Shown here: one piece after another, positions 635 through 64,000 of the stretch
Numbering within the stretch: the first letter of the stretch is position 1
Layout of the letters: each line of letters opens with the position of its first letter
Sequence record: OR842557
Direction: 5' to 3' (one strand)
From: Escherichia phage 04086
DNA length: 64,000 nt
Position numbers and translations under genes: made by a program
Notes under the pieces: model-generated
Told to the model about the DNA's origin: nothing
What the model saw: the letters and a program-made list of their open reading frames with translations, nothing else
Database searches by the model: none

Positions 635-1156
635 TCATTCCCACCAATCGATAGCGAACGTACTTTCAAACGTTTCAACTTCGTTGTTCGAATCCCAATC
701 CATCTGGACTTCACCAACGTTAGTAGGCCATAAGCCGTAAATTGTAACTTCTTTGGTCACAGTCTTGCCGTCACGATGGAACTGGCGAACTACTGCTTGT
801 TTCTTATATTCTGCAGGTGCTGCACCGGTAATTTCATTGGTCATACCATGACAGAGATTCTGCCAATCAACAATTGCTTGACGAGTGTCATGTGCATCAT
901 CGTTATAAATGGTAATGGTCCAATCATCAAACGTACGGTCACCAGCTACGTTAATTTTACGGTTCATGTAGCCAACCGGTACTTTTTCTACAATGCCTGC
1001 TGGCATAGGTGCTGCTTTACATTTAAAGCTAAAGTTTTTACCAAGAAATGGAATTTCCACTTCGAAAAGGTTAGGGCGTGCAAAGTCACCTGACTCAAAT
1101 GCACGAGTGATATCTGTCAACTCCATGGGATGCCTCATAAGCCAGTTCCTGGACAC
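635..1156 (-). CDS. 19: tail tube protein gp19
   Basis: 173 aa; ...TRAFESGDFARPNLFEVEI...NRKINVAGDRTFDDW...GLWPTNVGE closely matches T4 gp19 as remembered; conserved position. Confidence 0.95.
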   Translation of the reverse strand: MSRNWLMRHPMELTDITRAFESGDFARPNLFEVEIPFLGKNFSFKCKAAPMPAGIVEKVPVGYMNRKINVAGDRTFDDWTITIYNDDAHDTRQAIVDWQNLCHGMTNEITGAAPAEYKKQAVVRQFHRDGKTVTKEVTIYGLWPTNVGEVQMDWDSNNEVETFESTFAIDWWE

Positions 1157-1178
1157 ACCAGGAACGTTCTGATTAATT

Positions 1179-1186: not shown

Positions 1187-1311
1187 ACAGTTGATAAATC
1201 ATATTCCTAAAGAATAATCAATCCCAGGCGCAATTCTACGTGATGTACGCTGTAACCAAACTCATGGTATAATGGTTTTAGGTTCTTTATATTACAGCCT
1301 GGGATAATAGA

Positions 1312-3688
1312 TTATACTAAAGGTCCAATCAATTCATCAAAATCAGCACCAGTGCTCGTTGCAACGAAGTTCAACGTGATGTAGTTAATAGAACGAGAAG
1401 GTTTAACATAGATATTAGCAATAAACTCATTACGGTCGATAACCGCAGGGGTGTTCACTGTAGTATCACAAACCACACGTCCTTCATAAATCCCACCAAG
1501 TGCCTTAATACCATCTAAGTACTGAGAAACTTCCATACGGAAGCTTGAACGAGTGAAGTTATCGTTCAATTCAAACAGTTTGTATTTAGAGGCATCACCG
1601 ATATTTTTCTTAAGCATGTTGAACAGACGGCGAACGTTAATATGGTCCATCGGAGATGGAACTTTAGTTGCAGTCTTATCACCAAACAATACGAAACCAT
1701 CGCCACCAGCAAAACCAACAACCGGGTTAATAGCTTCTTGGTACATGCGGTCACGTTGAGCTTGGCGTGGTTCAATTGCCAATTTCAGAACGTTAAGAAT
1801 CTGACCACGGTTATAACCAGCCGGAGACATCCAAGGCTGAGAAACATCATCTGTACGCGCACACAAACCAGCCATATCAGCGGCCAGAGGCACCCAACGG
1901 TTTACGTCATTATATTTGTCATACTGATATTTATAGTTACCATCAATAGCAGCATAAGTGGTGCTAATGTTCATGTTGTTGGTATCGAAAGTACCTGCAC
2001 CTGTACGCCAGTCAATAAGGTTATCTACTGCACGAGTCAATGGAACGTTAACCAACAGTCCTTTAGGAGGAGAAATAAAGGCTAAGCAATCTTGACGTTC
2101 ATCAGCAATGCTCACCACGTGTTTCTGAACGGTAGAAGCAACTTCATCGCCTTCACCAGCAACAGCACCAGCAATCAAAAGGTTAATATGGAGTGCTTCA
2201 CGGTCGGCAAACAAATCCCAACCCTGCATCAAATCACTTGCAGTAACCTGATCGTTAGCAGATACACCACCCATTAGATTAATGATACCACTGAAGCCTT
2301 TAGGCCAGTTCAAAGAGGTAGCAAAAATATAGTTAGAAGTACCTTTAGCGAAATAGTCGTCAAGATAAATGTTATTACCGTAAACGTCTTTTTCACCTTC
2401 TTTGGTAGAAAGTACGACAGATTCTACGATAGCGCCGTCACGACGAACAATAATCGCGTATTGGTCATCTGTTTGTGGGCCGTAATTAAATACCGCCTTG
2501 GCAATAGAAGCACGGGTACCACCGCCAGGATAAATATCCAGCATTTTAGAAGAACCAACATCATAAGCTGCTTTGGAAACGATTTCTACTTCTAAGGTGG
2601 AACCAATTTCGCCTGGATAAAGAGCAACTACGCCTGGCATAGCAAATTTCTTAAGAGATGCTTGGAATTCCAGGGAAGTAATAGCTTCTTCACTGTTCTC
2701 TGCTTCAGTTAAAAGAATACCTGAATCCGTAACAATTTTACCTACGGTAATAGTACCGGAAACACCAGAAGAAGCGGAAGTAACTTCAGCCGTCCAAGCC
2801 GGGCCCAGGGTAGGANCACGCCAGGCATACCAAACTGTTTAAGAGACGCTTGGAATTCTAGGGAAGTAATAGCTTCTTCACTGTTCTCTGCTTCGGTCAA
2901 AAGAATACCGGAATCGGTTACGATTTTACCAACGGTAATAGTACCAGAAACACCTGAAGAGGCAGAAGTTACTTCAGCAGTCCATGCCGGGCCGAGGTTC
3001 GGATACTGGTTTAAAGAACGTGCATAAGCAATAATTTTTGCTGATGGGATAAACACGGAAAGAATTTTACCATCCGTATCTACAGAAGTCACACGNCTTC
3101 AGTTAAAAGAATACCTGAATCCGTAACAATTTTACCTACGGTAATAGTACCGGAAACACCAGAAGAAGCGGAAGTAACTTCAGCCGTCCAAGCCGGGCCC
3201 AGGGTAGGATACTGGTTTAAAGAACGTGCATAAGCAATAATTTTTGCTGATGGGATAAACACGGAAAGAATTTTACCATCCGTATCTACAGAAGTCACAC
3301 GACCTTCAGATTCAACAACAGTTTGGTTGTGCTTGATATTAATTTTATCGCCTACTGCATAGTTAGAACCAGCCGTAGTAATAGTGGTTTCGATATTGCC
3401 TGCAACAGGAGATGCGTTTTTAGCGAATTCACGGTTAACAACACGAACAGTACGAAGGTCGTTACCATATTGGAGGAAGTTCATACCAGACATAAAATAA
3501 TCTGCCACTTCGTTGTTAGGACCTCCAAACAAATCCACCAGTTCAACTTCGTTAGTAATTTGAGTTACCTGGAAAGCAGGGCCCCACTGGAATTTACCAA
3601 CCAGCGCTGCACGACCCGTTGCGTTACGAACGACAGTACTCTGTACGGACGTTTCTTTGAGCTCAATGCCCGGTGATAATAAAGACAT
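1312..3688 (-). CDS. 18: tail sheath protein gp18 (reading frame broken by an assembly-artifact block at 2817-3219)
   Basis: N-terminus MSLLSPGIELKETSVQSTVV and C-terminal 442 aa match T4 gp18. Joining 1312-2816 to 3220-3688 gives an uninterrupted 657-aa protein (T4 gp18 is 659 aa). Confidence 0.9.
2817..3219. repeat. N-flanked duplicated block (assembly artifact; divergent second haplotype of the gp18 segment)
   Basis: N at 2817 and 3097; 3098-3219 repeats 2695-2816 exactly; 2818-3096 is a roughly 90 percent identical variant of the following gp18 segment. Confidence 0.75.
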
Positions 3689-25285: not shown

Positions 25286-26109
25286 GTATATTTTCCTACA
25301 TCAATGAGGCTACTGAAACCACAAAGGGTTCCAAGCCCACCCGTTCAGAACAACAATGGATAACTTTAGGCGTTGAATATGCCAATGCCAAGGCTAAAGG
25401 TGTCTCGGCTAAGAAATTCGCTGAAGATAAAGGCATCAAGTATTCTAGTTTTACATCTGCGATGTCTCGATACTCGAGTCGAATTAAAACTGCTGTACAG
25501 GTTGAAAAACTTCAGAAGAAACCTGGCAATAAATTAACCAAAGCCGAACGTCAATTAATTTTGGTGAATAGTTTTAGAAAGAGTATTCGTGATAAGATTG
25601 CTAACGAAGGCGCCGCTGTAAACAATAAATCAGCTAAATGGTTTACAGAAACATTAAAGAAAGGAATTCGTGGACACCAGGTATCTAAACCGTCTCCTGG
25701 CAAGCTTTATGCTTATATCTATGATGCCAAACATAAGGATACCCTACCATACTGGGACAAATATCCTTTAATCATTTATCTTGGGTTAGGTAAGCATAAT
25801 TTAATGTATGGGCTGAACTTACACTATATCCCGCCTAAAGCACGCCAACAATTTCTGGAAGAATTGCTGAAGCAATACGCGAGTACGCCTACCATTACTA
25901 ACTCGACTAAATTAAAAATCGATTGGAGCAAGGTAAAAGGATTCGCCGGCGCAGACGTTATGATTAAGGCTTATATCCCTGGAAATATCAAGGGCCCTTT
26001 AGTAGAGATAAAACCTGCTGATTGGGCTAATGTAATAGGATTACCACTTCAACAATTTGTATCTAAAGGCAAGCGTTACTCAGCTCAGAAAGTTTGGAAG
26101 AAGGCATAA
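25273..26109 (+). CDS. 2: DNA end protector protein gp2
   Basis: 278 aa (T4 gp2 274 aa) in the conserved position after gene 4; an alternative start at ATG 25282 overlaps the gp4 stop. Confidence 0.75.
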
Positions 26110-26759
26110 TGAATTACCAGAAAATATATTCTTCATTAATTACACGTGCTCAAGGACGAGCACTATCCTGTTATACAGAATCTCATCATATTTTACCTAG
26201 ATGTATGGGTGGAGGCGATGAATCTACAAACTTAGTTGATTTAACTCCTGAAGAACATTATTTAGCACATCAACTATTAGTTAAAATGCATCCGGGACAT
26301 CCTGGTCTAACTTTTGCAGCTATGACAATGACTCAAGGCCCTCGTCGTTCTAATAAGCTTTACGGTTGGCTTAAACGTAAGCACTCTGAGAATATCACAG
26401 CAACCCAAACAGGAAAGGTTTATTATAATAATGGCAAGAAGTGTATTAAGCTGTTTCCGGGTGAACCGATTCCTGAAGGATTTGTAAAGGGACGAGGATG
26501 GAGTCCTACAAAAGGAACCACTCATGATAGGAATAATGGCCATTTTGCCAATAAAGAACTCCAAGCGGAGCTTTCTAAACGGAGATGGGATAAAGCCAGA
26601 AAGGAAACTTGTGAACAATTTGGTGTGGATACTATAGAAGAGGCCAAGGATATGGTTCGGGCATTTAAAGCTACATGCCACGAAAGATACTGGATAAAAC
26701 CAACTATAGCCAAATGGCCTTTTATGACACCAGTAAGACTACGTGAATTTATAAAATAA
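26109..26759 (+). CDS. HNH homing endonuclease (Mob-like)
   Basis: [10 protein letters not shown]...ESHHILPRCMGGGDESTNLVDLTPEEHYLAHQ is the phage HNH motif; ATG overlaps the gp2 stop (TAATG); sits between genes 2 and 3, which are adjacent in T4. Confidence 0.8.
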   Translation: MNYQKIYSSLITRAQGRALSCYTESHHILPRCMGGGDESTNLVDLTPEEHYLAHQLLVKMHPGHPGLTFAAMTMTQGPRRSNKLYGWLKRKHSENITATQTGKVYYNNGKKCIKLFPGEPIPEGFVKGRGWSPTKGTTHDRNNGHFANKELQAELSKRRWDKARKETCEQFGVDTIEEAKDMVRAFKATCHERYWIKPTIAKWPFMTPVRLREFIK

Positions 26760-26841
26760 TCTATTATCCCAGCCAGTTATTGAATGGAACAGACCTAGGA
26801 CCATTATACACTGTCTGGGACTTAAGCAATATAGGAATCCT

Positions 26842-53879: not shown

Positions 53880-54404
53880 ATGAACGCTAAAGATATTTTT
53901 TCACTGATTAATTTCAACAACGGTAATTTCAAATCTGAAAAACAAAGCAAGTTCTTTAACGATGTTGCTTGTGGTAATGAGATTACCGTATCCGGAGGAG
54001 AGATTTACAAAAGCCGTTGGAACTGGATTGCAGTTATCGATTCAGTTGGTATTGTAGAGCTCTATAAAAACACTAACAAAAAACGTACTCTTCACTGGAG
54101 TCGTGAAACCAATCAGGCTTATCAAGCTGAACGTAACAAACGTTTAATGCCTACCGAATCTGACCTGGCAAACGTTAAATCTGATATCGCTTATTTCGAT
54201 AATCTGATTGCTGAACAACAAGCTGTTATTGATAAGTTTGACGAAATCAAAGCTTGTAAAGAGATTCCTGAATTCATGCGGGAATCAGTAAATGAACAGT
54301 ACGCCCTCACTTCAGGTCGTATCGAGCAGTACAAATCACAACGAGCTGAACGCCAAGCTCTGCTTCAGAAATTTGAAGAGCGTTTAAAGACGGTTCTCGC
54401 ATAA
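53880..54404 (+). CDS. hypothetical protein
   Basis: 174-aa ORF behind the cassette RBS. Confidence 0.5.
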   Translation: MNAKDIFSLINFNNGNFKSEKQSKFFNDVACGNEITVSGGEIYKSRWNWIAVIDSVGIVELYKNTNKKRTLHWSRETNQAYQAERNKRLMPTESDLANVKSDIAYFDNLIAEQQAVIDKFDEIKACKEIPEFMRESVNEQYALTSGRIEQYKSQRAERQALLQKFEERLKTVLA

Positions 54405-54421
54405 ACGCTTTATACCAAGGA

Positions 54422-54430
54422 TGGTATAAT
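54422..54430 (+). promoter_or_regulatory. extended -10 promoter (TGgTATAAT)
   Basis: TGGTATAAT about 38 nt upstream of ATG 54468; no clear -35 hexamer. Confidence 0.45.
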
Positions 54431-54467
54431 GGTTCTAGGTTCTTAATTACTTACTGAGGAAATTATT

Positions 54468-55313
54468 ATGTCACAGGCAATTAATCAAATTCGTTCTGAA
54501 GTTAAAAAGGTTATTAAATTTGGTCGTATTCCACTGAATAAAGAAGTGGTTGAAAAGGTTTTGGCCATGATGTGGGAAAAGTTTGAAGTTTGTATTTCTG
54601 TAGATGAATTCACTAAAATCTTTGACAAGACTAAAGGTTTGTTTACGTTAGAAGACCGAGTCATGAAATCTCTTCACAGGGCAGGTATGTTGACTCGTGC
54701 TAACGCCAGAATTATTCTTAGAAATTATAACAAAGGCTACGACCTCTATGGTCGTTTAATCCCGGCGATGTCATTTGATGAAGTTGTTAAAGACCTTCGT
54801 ACTAACCAACGTCGTTTACTAGCACTGGGTGCTCGTCTGGCTTTAGGTAAAGATAAGCAAATGCCATTTAAGACTAATGGTTCAGGCGATTGGATTATCT
54901 TTAATATTGTCAACCAACCAGGTAACGAAAACGAGTATCTTACTTCAACTTTTAGTGGTTGTCAATATGACAATTGGAAATTCCATCTTCGACTGGCTTT
55001 GTCCGAACTCGAACGTAGCGGTATTCTTACCTTCGATAATGTTAATACCAGTACAGGCTGGCGTATTAAACTTGTTAAGCCAGGTAATGAAGTTAAAAGT
55101 CATTCAGAACAAGCTCCTAAACCAGAACCTGTACCAGTGCGCAGCAATGAGAAGCATCAAGCCCAGATTGAGTATTTTAGCAATTTGCTTACTTGCCTGA
55201 ATGTTACAATCCAACAACAAGATGATGAGATTTTCCGACTCTCTGGTCTGAATGCTAAAGCTAAGGCTGAACGTCAAAAATATATCGATATCCTAAATCT
55301 TCTTAAGGATTAA
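54468..55313 (+). CDS. hypothetical protein
   Basis: 281-aa ORF; N-terminus MSQAI shared with ORF 63470 through a common leader. Confidence 0.5.
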   Translation: MSQAINQIRSEVKKVIKFGRIPLNKEVVEKVLAMMWEKFEVCISVDEFTKIFDKTKGLFTLEDRVMKSLHRAGMLTRANARIILRNYNKGYDLYGRLIPAMSFDEVVKDLRTNQRRLLALGARLALGKDKQMPFKTNGSGDWIIFNIVNQPGNENEYLTSTFSGCQYDNWKFHLRLALSELERSGILTFDNVNTSTGWRIKLVKPGNEVKSHSEQAPKPEPVPVRSNEKHQAQIEYFSNLLTCLNVTIQQQDDEIFRLSGLNAKAKAERQKYIDILNLLKD

Positions 55314-62703: not shown

Positions 62704-63068
62704 NAGGCGTTGATTCTGAAGTTAAGAATGAAATGAACCGCCAGCTTCGTAAAGAAGTGAGAAAGCTGAAAAAAGATGTTTACAGCGACGATGAACCTGA
62801 TTACAATACTTCTCATCAAGTTGCAAAACGTAAATCAAACGAGTGTTATCGTTACAGCTGAGGAAAATTTAAATGAATCCTGAATCTAAATTATCACAGC
62901 GAATTGCTGAAGCTCGTCGTCAGTTCTTTGAAAATATGATAGCCCAAGGTATTGATGACGAAGTTTTTCTGAACTGGTTTTGGAATCACAAATATTCAAG
63001 TTGCTCAGGTGCTTTGTTAATTTCCGCAGCAATGATGTACGAAGNCTATCGTTACAGCTGAGGAAAAT
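62704..63068. repeat. N-flanked duplicated blocks (assembly artifact)
   Basis: N at 62704 and 63045; 62705-62870 is a variant copy of 62540-62697 and 62871-63044 a copy of 63201-63374. Confidence 0.75.
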
Positions 63069-63200
63069 ATGAATATCAAACGAATGCTTTTTAAGCAAGG
63101 GTTGTATACTTTAAATATCAGTCCAAAGGGCGATACAACCACGTGGTCAGTAAATGACTGGATTAAATTCATTGATAAACACGGAAACTGGAAAATTTAA
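63069..63200 (+). CDS. hypothetical small protein
   Basis: 43-aa ORF (MNIKRMLFKQ...) behind GAGG RBS. Confidence 0.3.
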   Translation: MNIKRMLFKQGLYTLNISPKGDTTTWSVNDWIKFIDKHGNWKI

Positions 63201-63401
63201 ATGAATCCTGAATCTAAATTATCACAGCGAATTGCTGAAGCTCGTCGTCAGTTCTTTGAAAATATGATAGCCCAAGGTATTGATGACGAAGTTTTTCTGA
63301 ACTGGTTTTGGAATCACAAATATTCAAGTTGCTCAGGTGCTTTGTTAATTTCCGCAGCAATGATGTACGAAGGCTGGAAAGGTGCAATGAGTCAAAAATA
63401 G
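63201..63401 (+). CDS. hypothetical protein
   Basis: 66-aa ORF; a truncated duplicate at 62873-63061 is an artifact. Confidence 0.45.
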   Translation: MNPESKLSQRIAEARRQFFENMIAQGIDDEVFLNWFWNHKYSSCSGALLISAAMMYEGWKGAMSQK

Positions 63402-63430
63402 TTTACAAACTCTTGGGACCAGAGTATAAT
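63401..63430 (+). promoter_or_regulatory. early promoter cassette (GTTTAC-18-TATAAT) with flanking inverted repeat
   Basis: GTTTAC 63401-63406, TATAAT 63425-63430; inverted repeat ggacc/ggtcc; leader ctgaggaaattattATG shared with 54468. Confidence 0.6.
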
Positions 63431-63469
63431 GGTCCTACGGATTATAACTTTAAAACTGAGGAAATTATT

Positions 63470-63784
63470 ATGTCACAAGCTATTAAAAACGTACTGAACT
63501 CTTTCGCTTTCGATAAAGTAAACGAACTGATGAAAACAGGTTTTGTAACTCCTCAGGTTCTTGACCAATGGGTTGCTGAACTGTTACCAATCATGCACTC
63601 TAAAGACCAGAAAATTGGTAAGAACGGTATTCGTGAAATCCTGGTTCAATATATCCTTGATGAATTCGATGTCGCTGCCTTTGGTGTTGAATCCAAAGCT
63701 TGGTGCCCTGGCGAAATCACGGATAAAACTATCCGTCGTATGAAAAACCAACGTAAGAAAAAATTCGTNATGAGTCAAAAATAG
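63470..63784 (+). CDS. hypothetical protein (3' end uncertain because of the artifact at 63769)
   Basis: ORF from ATG 63470 (MSQAIKNVLN...); the ORF-track start at 63308 is an extension through the promoter. Confidence 0.45.
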   Translation: MSQAIKNVLNSFAFDKVNELMKTGFVTPQVLDQWVAELLPIMHSKDQKIGKNGIREILVQYILDEFDVAAFGVESKAWCPGEITDKTIRRMKNQRKKKFXMSQK

Positions 63785-64000
63785 TTTACAAACTCTTGGG
63801 ACCAGAGTATAATGGTCCTACGGATTATAACTTTAAAACTGAGGAAATTATTATGTCACAAGCTATTAAAAACGTACTGAACTCTTTCGCTTTCGATAAA
63901 GTAAACGAACTGATGAAAACCGGTTTTGTGACTCCTGAAATTCTTGACCAATGGGTTGCTGAACTGCTGCCAATCATGCACTCTAAAGACCAGAAAATTG
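63769..64000. repeat. N-flanked duplicated block (assembly artifact; variant haplotype)
   Basis: N at 63769; 63770-64000 is a near-identical copy of 63386-63616 with several substitutions. Confidence 0.7.

Follow-up and report, generated by a model that had tools for sequence, protein, structure and literature searches.

The spacer between genes 18 and 19 of this phage carries what is predicted to be a T4 middle-type promoter, of the MotA-dependent class, which points backward and is a copy-relative of the T4 promoter PnrdC.7, a reading to which we give a probability of ca. 0.6. Most likely, transcription from this promoter would yield a prereplicative, non-coding transcript antisense to gene 18. 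The element is a new example of an already known kind. Its class, paralogy, conservation, selection and phylogenetic distribution rest on sequence; its firing, its timing and the role of its RNA are what we infer.

The DNA analysed here (the window, 64,000 nt in length) comes from a JS98-like T-even phage of the genus Dhakavirus and its segment 1000-1500 is 99% identical to MX01 and AnYang. The spacer is flanked by gene 18 and gene 19, annotated in relatives as tail sheath and tail tube, respectively. Genes 20, 19 and 18 all occur on the minus strand, so that the plus strand corresponds here to the strand of early and middle transcription in T4. A promoter-like element at 1265-1273, antisense to the late genes, had been proposed in the initial annotation and both points are borne out: the extended -10 is in place, the site ranks eighth with the matrix described below, and it is found on the plus strand, opposite to genes 18-20. 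The features of the locus are the following.

635-1126, minus strand: gene 19, with its ATG at 1126-1124
1145-1165, minus strand: hairpin of the gene 19 leader, GTTCCTGG/CCAGGAAC
1186-1179, minus strand: late-promoter consensus TATAAATA for gene 19, read directly (tatttata on the plus strand)
1221-1229: left arm ATCCCAGGC of the inverted repeat around the promoter
1245-1254, plus strand: MotA-box-like element GTACGCTGTA, core CGCTGTA, 13 nt 5' of the -10 hexamer
1255-1267, plus strand: spacer of 13 nt between the box and the -10
1263-1295, plus strand: string quoted in the initial annotation, catggtataatggttttaggttctttatattac
1265-1273, plus strand: extended -10 TGGTATAAT, with hexamer TATAAT at 1268-1273 and TGG before the hexamer
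1274-1287, plus strand: discriminator and initial transcribed region GGTTTTAGGTTCTT, identical at 13 of 14 positions to 54431-54444
1297-1305: right arm GCCTGGGAT of the inverted repeat, at ca. +18 to +26 of the predicted antisense RNA
1299-1315: 17-mer CTGGGATAATAGATTAT, read on the late strand as ATAATCTATTATCCCAG, which holds the gene 18 stop TAA
1312-1314, minus strand: stop codon of gene 18 (tail sheath)

A weight matrix that combines the box, the spacing and the extended -10 was derived from 58 mapped T4 middle promoters, placed on the T4 record by their published starts, and gives these known promoters a leave-one-out median of 15.1 bits. With 17.2 bits, the 18-19 site ranks 8 of the 127,604 positions in the window, where sites of at least 17 bits occur 8 times compared to 0.28 per window in dinucleotide shuffles and those of at least 15 bits 19 times versus 1.3 expected. 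Its -10 block, an excellent match to that of sigma-70, scores 10.9 bits as does that of PnrdC.7, and its box provides 6.2 of the 17.2 bits in this T4 matrix, which may transfer inexactly to the genus because MotA there is only 51% identical to T4 MotA (over 207 aa). The annotation of JS98 lists both motA and asiA. Relative to the MotA box consensus, (a/t)(a/t)(a/t)TGCTTtA with its centre near -30, GTACGCTGTA agrees at five of the seven core positions and departs at two, one of which falls in the conserved CTT centre. Both departures are found, separately and not jointly, in mapped T4 promoters: CGCT occurs in five (CGCTTTA in PnrdC.7, PrIIA, Pdex.2 and Ptk.3; CGCTTTT in Pagt.4) and GCTG in three (TGCTGTA in PmobD.3; TGCTGCA in Pdam and PmobC). 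The box lies 13 bp from the -10, within the 12 +/- 1 bp required of a MotA-dependent middle promoter, and register with the mapped start of T4 PnrdC.7 predicts a start at A1280 (plus strand).

A T4-type early promoter, with a GTTTAC- or TTGACA-like -35 located 17 +/- 1 bp upstream and an A+T-rich UP element, was not found at this position. The hexamers at 17 and 18 nt are GTACGC and TGTACG, respectively, with no -35 among them, and a consensus scan returned no plus-strand sigma-70 site for the element; genuine early-type promoters at 63.4 kb carry GTTTAC. The label "early" given in the initial annotation has thus to be replaced, since the 54.4-kb copy that served as its reference is the PnrdC.7 ortholog (see below) and the 18-19 copy lacks a usable -35 but carries a box of MotA type. 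Some early use that is independent of MotA could still occur through the extended -10. For annotation of these genomes, the lesson is that an extended -10 should be checked for a MotA box before being called early.

The resemblance to the promoter and leader at 54.4 kb, already noticed in the initial annotation, is real and far above chance. The 24-mer ATGGTATAATGGTTTTAGGTTCTT at 1264-1287 recurs at 54421-54444 with one mismatch, a match that is absent from 100 of 100 dinucleotide-preserving shuffles. Local alignment stretches the similarity to ca. 70 nt (1247-1316 versus 54405-54470; z = 13.9 relative to shuffles) and takes in the upstream MotA-box-like GCT(G/T)TA as well as the downstream leader. 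The features of this copy are as follows.

54403-54444, plus strand: first paralog, ortholog of the T4 middle promoter PnrdC.7 by sequence alignment and matrix
54403-54412, plus strand: its box AAACGCTTTA, followed by a spacer of 12 nt
54422-54430, plus strand: its extended -10 TGGTATAAT
A54437, plus strand: its predicted start

The first 42 nt of this copy are identical at 41 of 42 positions to T4 53366-53325, at the end of nrdC.8, and the start computed from the alignment is 53325, the A of ggttctA in T4. This coincides with the start published for PnrdC.7, a MotA-dependent middle promoter that has been mapped experimentally (Truncaite et al. 2003, listed in PMC2988021 Table 1). As an ortholog of PnrdC.7, the 54.4-kb reference promoter is, by sequence, middle rather than early. 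It ranks first in the window with 21.0 bits and drives an nrdC.6-like gene starting at 54469, a situation also found in Gaprivervirus VR7.

A further copy, in the spacer between genes 2 and 3, likewise runs antisense to the late genes beside it and ranks fifth with the matrix (18.2 bits).

26760-26841, minus strand: second paralog, a predicted antisense middle-type promoter in the gene 2-3 spacer
26831-26822, minus strand: its box TATTGCTTAA, followed by a 13-nt spacer and TATAAT at 26808-26803
26820-26811 and 26776-26767: arms of the inverted repeat around its -10

The 2-3 promoter is kept in T4, Gaprivervirus, PM2 and Kanagawa-like phages; in T4, it reads AATGCTTTA followed by 13 nt and by TATAAT at 75988-75993. 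Its stem displays compensatory changes, with A-U to G-C via G-U, 4 pairs altered on both sides and a covariation of 0.262 versus 0.132 that none of 500 shuffles reaches. The 17-mer CTGGGATAATAGATTAT forms the end of this module as well, is identical in the 2-3 and 18-19 copies and has a stop codon within it on the sense strand. Five of the six Dhakavirus genomes in IMG/VR contain the motif TATAATGGTYYTAGGTY three times (PnrdC.7, 18-19 spacer and 2-3 spacer) while VR5 contains it twice. A mapped T4 promoter, PnrdC.7, thus has paralogs that are set backward at the ends of late genes.

Over ca. 70 nt, in its upstream two-thirds, the 18-19 element can be aligned with PnrdC.7 and over ca. 50 nt, at its downstream end, with the 2-3 module, while these two share merely a 17-nt core; the 18-19 element therefore looks like a recombinant, or mosaic, of both modules at the sequence level. 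It also retains a decayed ribosome-binding site and start region (CTGGGATAATAGATTATA versus CTGAGGAAATTATTATG). When concerted evolution of the start regions was looked for, identities of 10-13/16 within genomes versus 9-11/16 between orthologs were obtained, which is suggestive for Gaprivervirus only. A shared homing target as the cause of the common 17-mer was discarded, the ORFs inserted at the two sites being unrelated (E = 0.10; different PHROG families).

Such insertions make the 18-19 spacer a hot spot. UP19 and PSD9 have an additional ORF (180 or 206 codons; PHROG 5104, function unknown) that separates the element from the gene 18 stop. The junction is exact and lies at the edge of CTGGGATAATAGATTAT, where a 5-bp TTAGT repeat occurs, and these inserts bring their own, different promoter and stem-loop. 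QL01 has a similar insert on the gene 18 side of the element, while in vB_EcoM_005 and Bp7 the insert is found on the opposite side, between the element and gene 19. In the 2-3 spacer of the window, a homing endonuclease gene (26094-26759, PHROG 655) that only some relatives have occupies the equivalent place. The promoter modules survive ORF insertion at either side. The extra genes in the 18-19 spacer of relatives are probably endonuclease genes; a Pfam search of the inserted ORFs gave no match.

The initial annotation had left chance similarity as an alternative, to be recognised by lack of antisense transcription and absence of the element from relatives. The condition of absence fails: the spacer sequence 1195-1311 is present in 50 of 50 Dhakavirus database records, with 90-100% identity, and positional equivalents occur in two other lineages. 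The promoter is kept in all 11 Dhakaviruses compared, among which only 4 of the 66 sites at 1246-1311 are variable versus 84 of 310 third-codon positions (27%) in genes 18 and 19 (Fisher p = 9e-5); in the remaining 18-19 spacer, 19 of 122 sites vary. Neither the box (0/9) nor the extended -10 (0/9) has a variable site in these 11 phages, and the two variable promoter sites both fall between them. Judged from this variation, the element is under purifying selection. A late-strand constraint, on a 3' structure in the gene 18 message, could also account for the low variation instead of one on the promoter.

The distribution of the element was assessed on 79 gene 19 loci from IMG/VR, from which the 18-19 spacers were extracted and scored in the antisense direction. 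Scores of at least 14 were obtained only in Dhakavirus (17.2-18.0), Gaprivervirus (14.3-16.9) and Marfa-like phages (17.0-18.7), other lineages having at most 9.4 in spacers without an inserted ORF. In the former, again for spacers without an inserted ORF, the site is 44 nt (Dhakavirus), 49-51 nt (Gaprivervirus) and 36 nt (Marfa-like) from the gene 18 stop, and in each of the three lineages it is enclosed by its own, different inverted repeat. Gaprivervirus has TTATGCTTTT, 13 nt and TATAAT inside the perfect repeat CCGTAGAACC/GGTTCTACGG, the promoter elements being retained in place and the remaining spacer having diverged. The Marfa-like Klebsiella phages have the same architecture in unrelated sequence (TATTGCTAAA, 13 nt and TGGTATAAT, inside CCTGAAG/CTTCAGG). 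No antisense promoter was found in the 18-19 spacer of T4, T6, RB69-like and most other T4-like phages examined. The typical T4-like 18-19 spacer, including that of T4 and T6, is short and consists of a G+C-rich hairpin and of the late promoter TATAAATA, which precedes gene 19 in most of them as it does here. A Kanagawavirus-like group is as near to Dhakavirus in gp18 as Gaprivervirus is, yet it is without the element, which implies more than one event of gain or loss.

In the window, the inverted repeat around the promoter consists of 9-nt arms that are 100% complementary, lie 67 nt apart and begin, on the late strand, 7 nt past the gene 18 stop. The late-strand RNA of the spacer folds as one closed domain that includes the left arm (-30.4 kcal/mol; z = -1.95, a modest value reached by 9 of 200 shuffles) and is followed by the U-rich tail UGAUUAUUCUUU. 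An intrinsic terminator on the late strand was rejected, the structure having a 9-bp stem and a 67-nt interior and being unlisted by the terminator scan. A single variant affects the right arm in Dhakavirus (G to A at 1297 in IME341), and no covariation was detected in the 18-19 repeat within the genus, where variation is too scant. A mini-ORF on the late strand (ATG at 1266-1264, 9 codons) was also set aside; it is without a ribosome-binding site and its second codon varies.

On the plus strand downstream of the element, only antisense late genes occur for more than 20 kb and no gene is available for the promoter to drive. A 147-codon ORF at 1642-2085 (plus strand) was rejected as a coding sequence: it falls in the codon-aligned antisense frame of gene 18, which is stop-poor in all T4-like phages and whose open stretches shift within the genus, and it is therefore an artefact of codon bias. 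Rfam, searched with both strands of 1000-1600, returned nothing beyond a chance snoRNA match (E = 0.27). With nothing but antisense late genes, an ORF artefact and no RNA family, one would expect the product to be non-coding and antisense to late genes. The plus-strand terminator scan found only a weak 6-bp candidate at 1646-1660.

We propose that sigma-70 RNA polymerase, once remodelled by AsiA and MotA, would use the 18-19 promoter in the prereplicative period and that a non-coding RNA would begin at ca. A1280 and run in the usual early and middle direction into the 3' end of gene 18, as an "anti-late RNA". Having the right arm alone, this RNA would not self-pair. The opposite strand would be transcribed late in infection and the paired arms would then give the gene 18 message a 3' stem ahead of the gene 19 late promoter (1186-1179). 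Judging from its sequence, there is a good chance that the promoter initiates transcription in infected cells, and it is probably, if with less assurance, kept for a function. As to what the RNA does, we tentatively suggest that it would insulate the late cluster or an inserted endonuclease gene, or exert antisense control on either; an oriG-like R-loop primer is an unlikely role; and the rest of the probability goes to one that is unknown or to none.

The idea of an origin deserves attention since, among antisense middle promoters within T4 late genes, only that of oriG is well understood, which makes the 18-19 element also a candidate lineage-specific origin. Origins of the oriF/oriG type consist of a middle promoter and an A+T-rich unwinding element (PMC3016281): the transcript would remain paired with the A+T-rich DNA downstream in an R-loop and, after cleavage by RNase H, prime leading-strand synthesis. 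The T4 record lists two origins with primer RNAs directed against late genes, oriE and oriG, the latter from the middle promoter P34i, which is antisense inside late gene 34, and the polarity of the 18-19 element is that of all annotated T4 origin primers. As the minimal element of an R-loop origin requires, a predicted middle-mode promoter is found within ca. 100 bp. The 18-19 copy shares its initial TGGTATAATG with PuvsY, the promoter of oriF, and the 2-3 paralog shares its initial GTGTATAATGGTCC with P34i. The first 50 transcribed nt are 68% A+T and belong to the least stable 7.5% of 50-nt windows, a measure that does not separate true origins: PuvsY and P34i are 20th and 48th, respectively, of the 58 middle promoters for downstream instability. 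Moreover, the closest paralog, PnrdC.7, is an ordinary gene promoter, and the 18-19 site is located in the middle of a late cluster whereas the more active T4 origins occur at strand-switch regions (PMC3016281). Taken together, an origin at this site appears unlikely.

It is also doubtful that the element is a silent relic, either of a promoter-leader cassette copied in by recombination between PnrdC.7 and the 2-3 module or of a mobile gene since lost. The initial annotation had raised a relic of cassette transposition, and part of this stands: the element is a mosaic of two promoter modules with a decayed start region, it sits in a hot spot of inserted ORFs and it is missing from most T4-like phages. 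It is under purifying selection and therefore not merely a relic, its variation being four-fold below that of synonymous sites with box and -10 invariant. Retention of the promoter elements in the diverged spacer of Gaprivervirus, and recurrence of the architecture in the unrelated sequence of Marfa-like phages, also argue against silence.

PeSLs are units of ca. 100 bp made of a promoter and a stem-loop, with stems that overlap, adjoin or fall between the promoter boxes (Arbiol et al. 2010, PMC2839356), and they mediate ORF insertion and deletion in RB49 and phi1 (PMC2839356). A mobile regulatory cassette of this sort, whose main role would be that of a homology patch for ORF exchange in the spacer, would account for the promoter within an inverted repeat, for three related copies per genome and for extra ORFs at either side in different isolates. 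PeSL promoters, however, are strong early sigma-70 promoters that have a -35 as well as an A+T-rich tract upstream, occur in hyperplastic regions next to orphan ORFs and are co-oriented with their neighbours (PMC2839356), whereas the 18-19 element has a stem-loop but no -35, points backward and lies in a conserved late cluster. In addition, the UP19/PSD9 junction is a mere 5-bp repeat, TTAGT, rather than a cassette-to-cassette recombination, and the inserts have a promoter and stem-loop of their own that differ. Membership in the PeSL family is thus rejected on promoter type and location, and the cassette reading is quite improbable.

Least probable of all is that the repeat and its interior serve only the late strand, as a stabiliser or attenuator at the 3' end of the gene 18 message with an incidental likeness to a promoter: most T4-like phages do have a hairpin directly past the gene 18 stop, the late-strand RNA of the spacer is one closed domain followed by UGAUUAUUCUUU and the paralogous 2-3 stem covaries through a G-U intermediate that pairs in late-strand RNA only, but this fails to account for the perfect TGGTATAAT, the box distance, the matrix rank and the 70-nt likeness to a mapped promoter, the invariant columns are those of the promoter elements while the stem arms vary, and the 67-nt loop is unlike that of an intrinsic terminator.

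The backward middle-type promoter that we favour may belong to a wider set. T4 too has strong middle-type sites outside the list of 58 mapped promoters, two of which (hexamers at 75988 and 11885, plus strand) share TGGTATAATGRRTCTAAGTCC with the oriF promoter PuvsY. It is conceivable, if improbable, that the 18-19 and 2-3 elements and these two unlisted T4 sites form one class of two-faced spacer modules, each with a hairpin that ends the message of the upstream gene at its stop codon and, inside or next to this hairpin, a convergent MotA-type promoter, whose transcripts would be R-loop primers or dedicated sources of anti-late RNA and which would spread by recombination and tolerate insertion of endonuclease genes. 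If their transcripts were primers, these modules would amount to additional oriF/oriG-type origins, specific to their lineages. As a lead, the recurrence of backward middle promoters at late-gene stop codons, T4 sites included, is more interesting than the single element.

In T4, "anti-late RNA" was described in the 1970s as prereplicative transcripts complementary to late messages. The observation is old and, to our knowledge, the promoters and the purpose of this RNA were never settled, nor do we know of its promoters being tied to conserved spacer modules. In the literature, nothing usable was found on nrdC.7 promoters, on "anti-late RNA" or on VR7 middle promoters. For the prereplicative RNA of T-even phages that is antisense to late genes, the 18-19 element offers a concrete, conserved and easily mutated candidate source. 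Its predicted product is exactly such an RNA, whereas T4, the phage in which anti-late RNA was observed, is without a promoter in its own 18-19 spacer.

Comparison with the other known systems places the element closest to PnrdC.7. Through the window's own ortholog (54403-54470), both are similar over ca. 70 nt and share the C-for-T variant of the box (CGCT...), TGGTATAAT, the GGTT.TA start context and a box-to--10 spacing within 12 +/- 1. They differ in that PnrdC.7 drives a downstream gene in a normal early/middle region while the 18-19 copy has no gene and faces the 3' end of gene 18; in the box centre, where G replaces the second T (CTG versus CTT); and in the 13-nt spacer and enclosing inverted repeat of the 18-19 copy compared to the 12-nt spacer of PnrdC.7. 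P34i/oriG resembles the element in being a MotA-type promoter in a late-gene region, directed against late genes with prereplicative polarity, with no protein product and with A+T-rich DNA downstream. Beyond the -10 and the GG that follows it, these two have no sequence similarity, and oriG is inside a coding sequence with a demonstrated origin activity whereas the 18-19 element adjoins a stop codon within a spacer. Finally, the PeSLs of RB49 and phi1 also combine a promoter and a stem-loop in ca. 100 bp, in several copies and at sites of ORF turnover; they are strong early sigma-70 promoters, while the 18-19 element is middle-type without a -35, antisense to its neighbours and located in a conserved structural cluster.

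A strong middle-type promoter occurs in the spacer between genes 2 and 3, where it is oriented against genes 2 and 4 and has been kept from T4 to Dhakavirus:
window 26760-26841, - strand, and T4 AF158101 75950-76066, + strand: strong middle-type promoter of the gene 2-3 spacer

Over the first ca. 24 transcribed nt, the T4 and Dhakavirus copies are identical at 19 of 24 positions. The T4 copy, which scores 22.5 bits against the middle-promoter matrix, has no entry among the 58 published middle promoters and is located 3.4 kb from oriE, the vicinity of which is devoid of middle promoter according to a review. Another T4 site was also found to have no entry in the published list:
T4 AF158101 11860-11910, + strand: middle-type site in the srd/modA spacer (locus L110)

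This site has the top middle-type score of the T4 + strand (23.1 bits) and has TGGTATAATGAATCTAAGTCC in common with PuvsY, the oriF promoter. It is directed into the modA stop codon, itself contained within a ATTATAGATTA motif that is similar to the GATAATAGATTA ending the Dhakavirus modules.

Comparison of the start regions of related promoters (window 1274-1290, 26802-26786 and 54431-54447; loci L122, 185-200, and L093) indicated that the ca. 16 first transcribed nt tend to be more alike among copies of one genome than among orthologs, most clearly so in Gaprivervirus (GGTTCTGACCTTTG versus GGTTCTAGACCTTTTG). Such a tendency may hint at gene conversion or shared constraint, although the numbers are too low for a claim.

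Inserted genes were found beside the modules. In the first case, the inserted gene is flanked by gene 2 on one side and by the spacer module on the other:
window 26094-26759, + strand: homing endonuclease gene, PHROG 655, 221 codons

This gene is found in C6, ABTNLS3 and QL01 and is missing from JS98, WG01, Bp7 and others. The 18-19 spacer varies in its inserted ORFs, which different Dhakaviruses carry to one side or the other of the promoter element (loci L001, 1820-2502; L002, 1820-2517; L009, L010 and L120); inserts are also present in T6 (L007, 488-1093) and in several other genera (L016, L023, L031, L035, L042). The UP19/PSD9 insert has its own promoter, GTTTAC...TATAAT, followed by a stem (GCGCGTAT/ATACGCGC).

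In the 18-19 spacer of two Gaprivervirus loci (L022, L024), the box and the -10 of the antisense promoter are separated by a stretch whose other strand carries the late-promoter consensus TATAAATA, so that late and middle-type promoters overlap face to face.

Several tandem near-duplicates of 160-230 nt (87-99% identity) adjoin single N characters in regions 2630-3318 and 62862-64000:
window 2630-2815/2818-3003, 2950-3111/3156-3318, 62862-63047/63190-63375 and 63387-63617/63770-64000: tandem near-duplicates
window 2816, 3096, 22809, 23070, 28499, 31385-7, 58705-7, 62704, 63045 and 63769: N characters

Gene 18 is divided by these repeats into three ORFs. The repeats have the appearance of joins made in assembling a mixed or overlapping draft, not of a biological feature. 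Because of this assembly duplication, an early-type promoter appears in two copies:
window 63380-63470 and 63765-63850, + strand: early-type promoter, GTTTAC, 18 nt, TATAAT

The gene downstream of this promoter begins with MSQAIK and is a paralog of that at 54469 (MSQAIN), both having an identical ribosome-binding-site region (CTGAGGAAATTATTATG). A stem, GGGACC/GGTCC, surrounds the -10 of the promoter, which thereby resembles PeSL, the promoter plus stem-loop cassette of RB49 and phi1.
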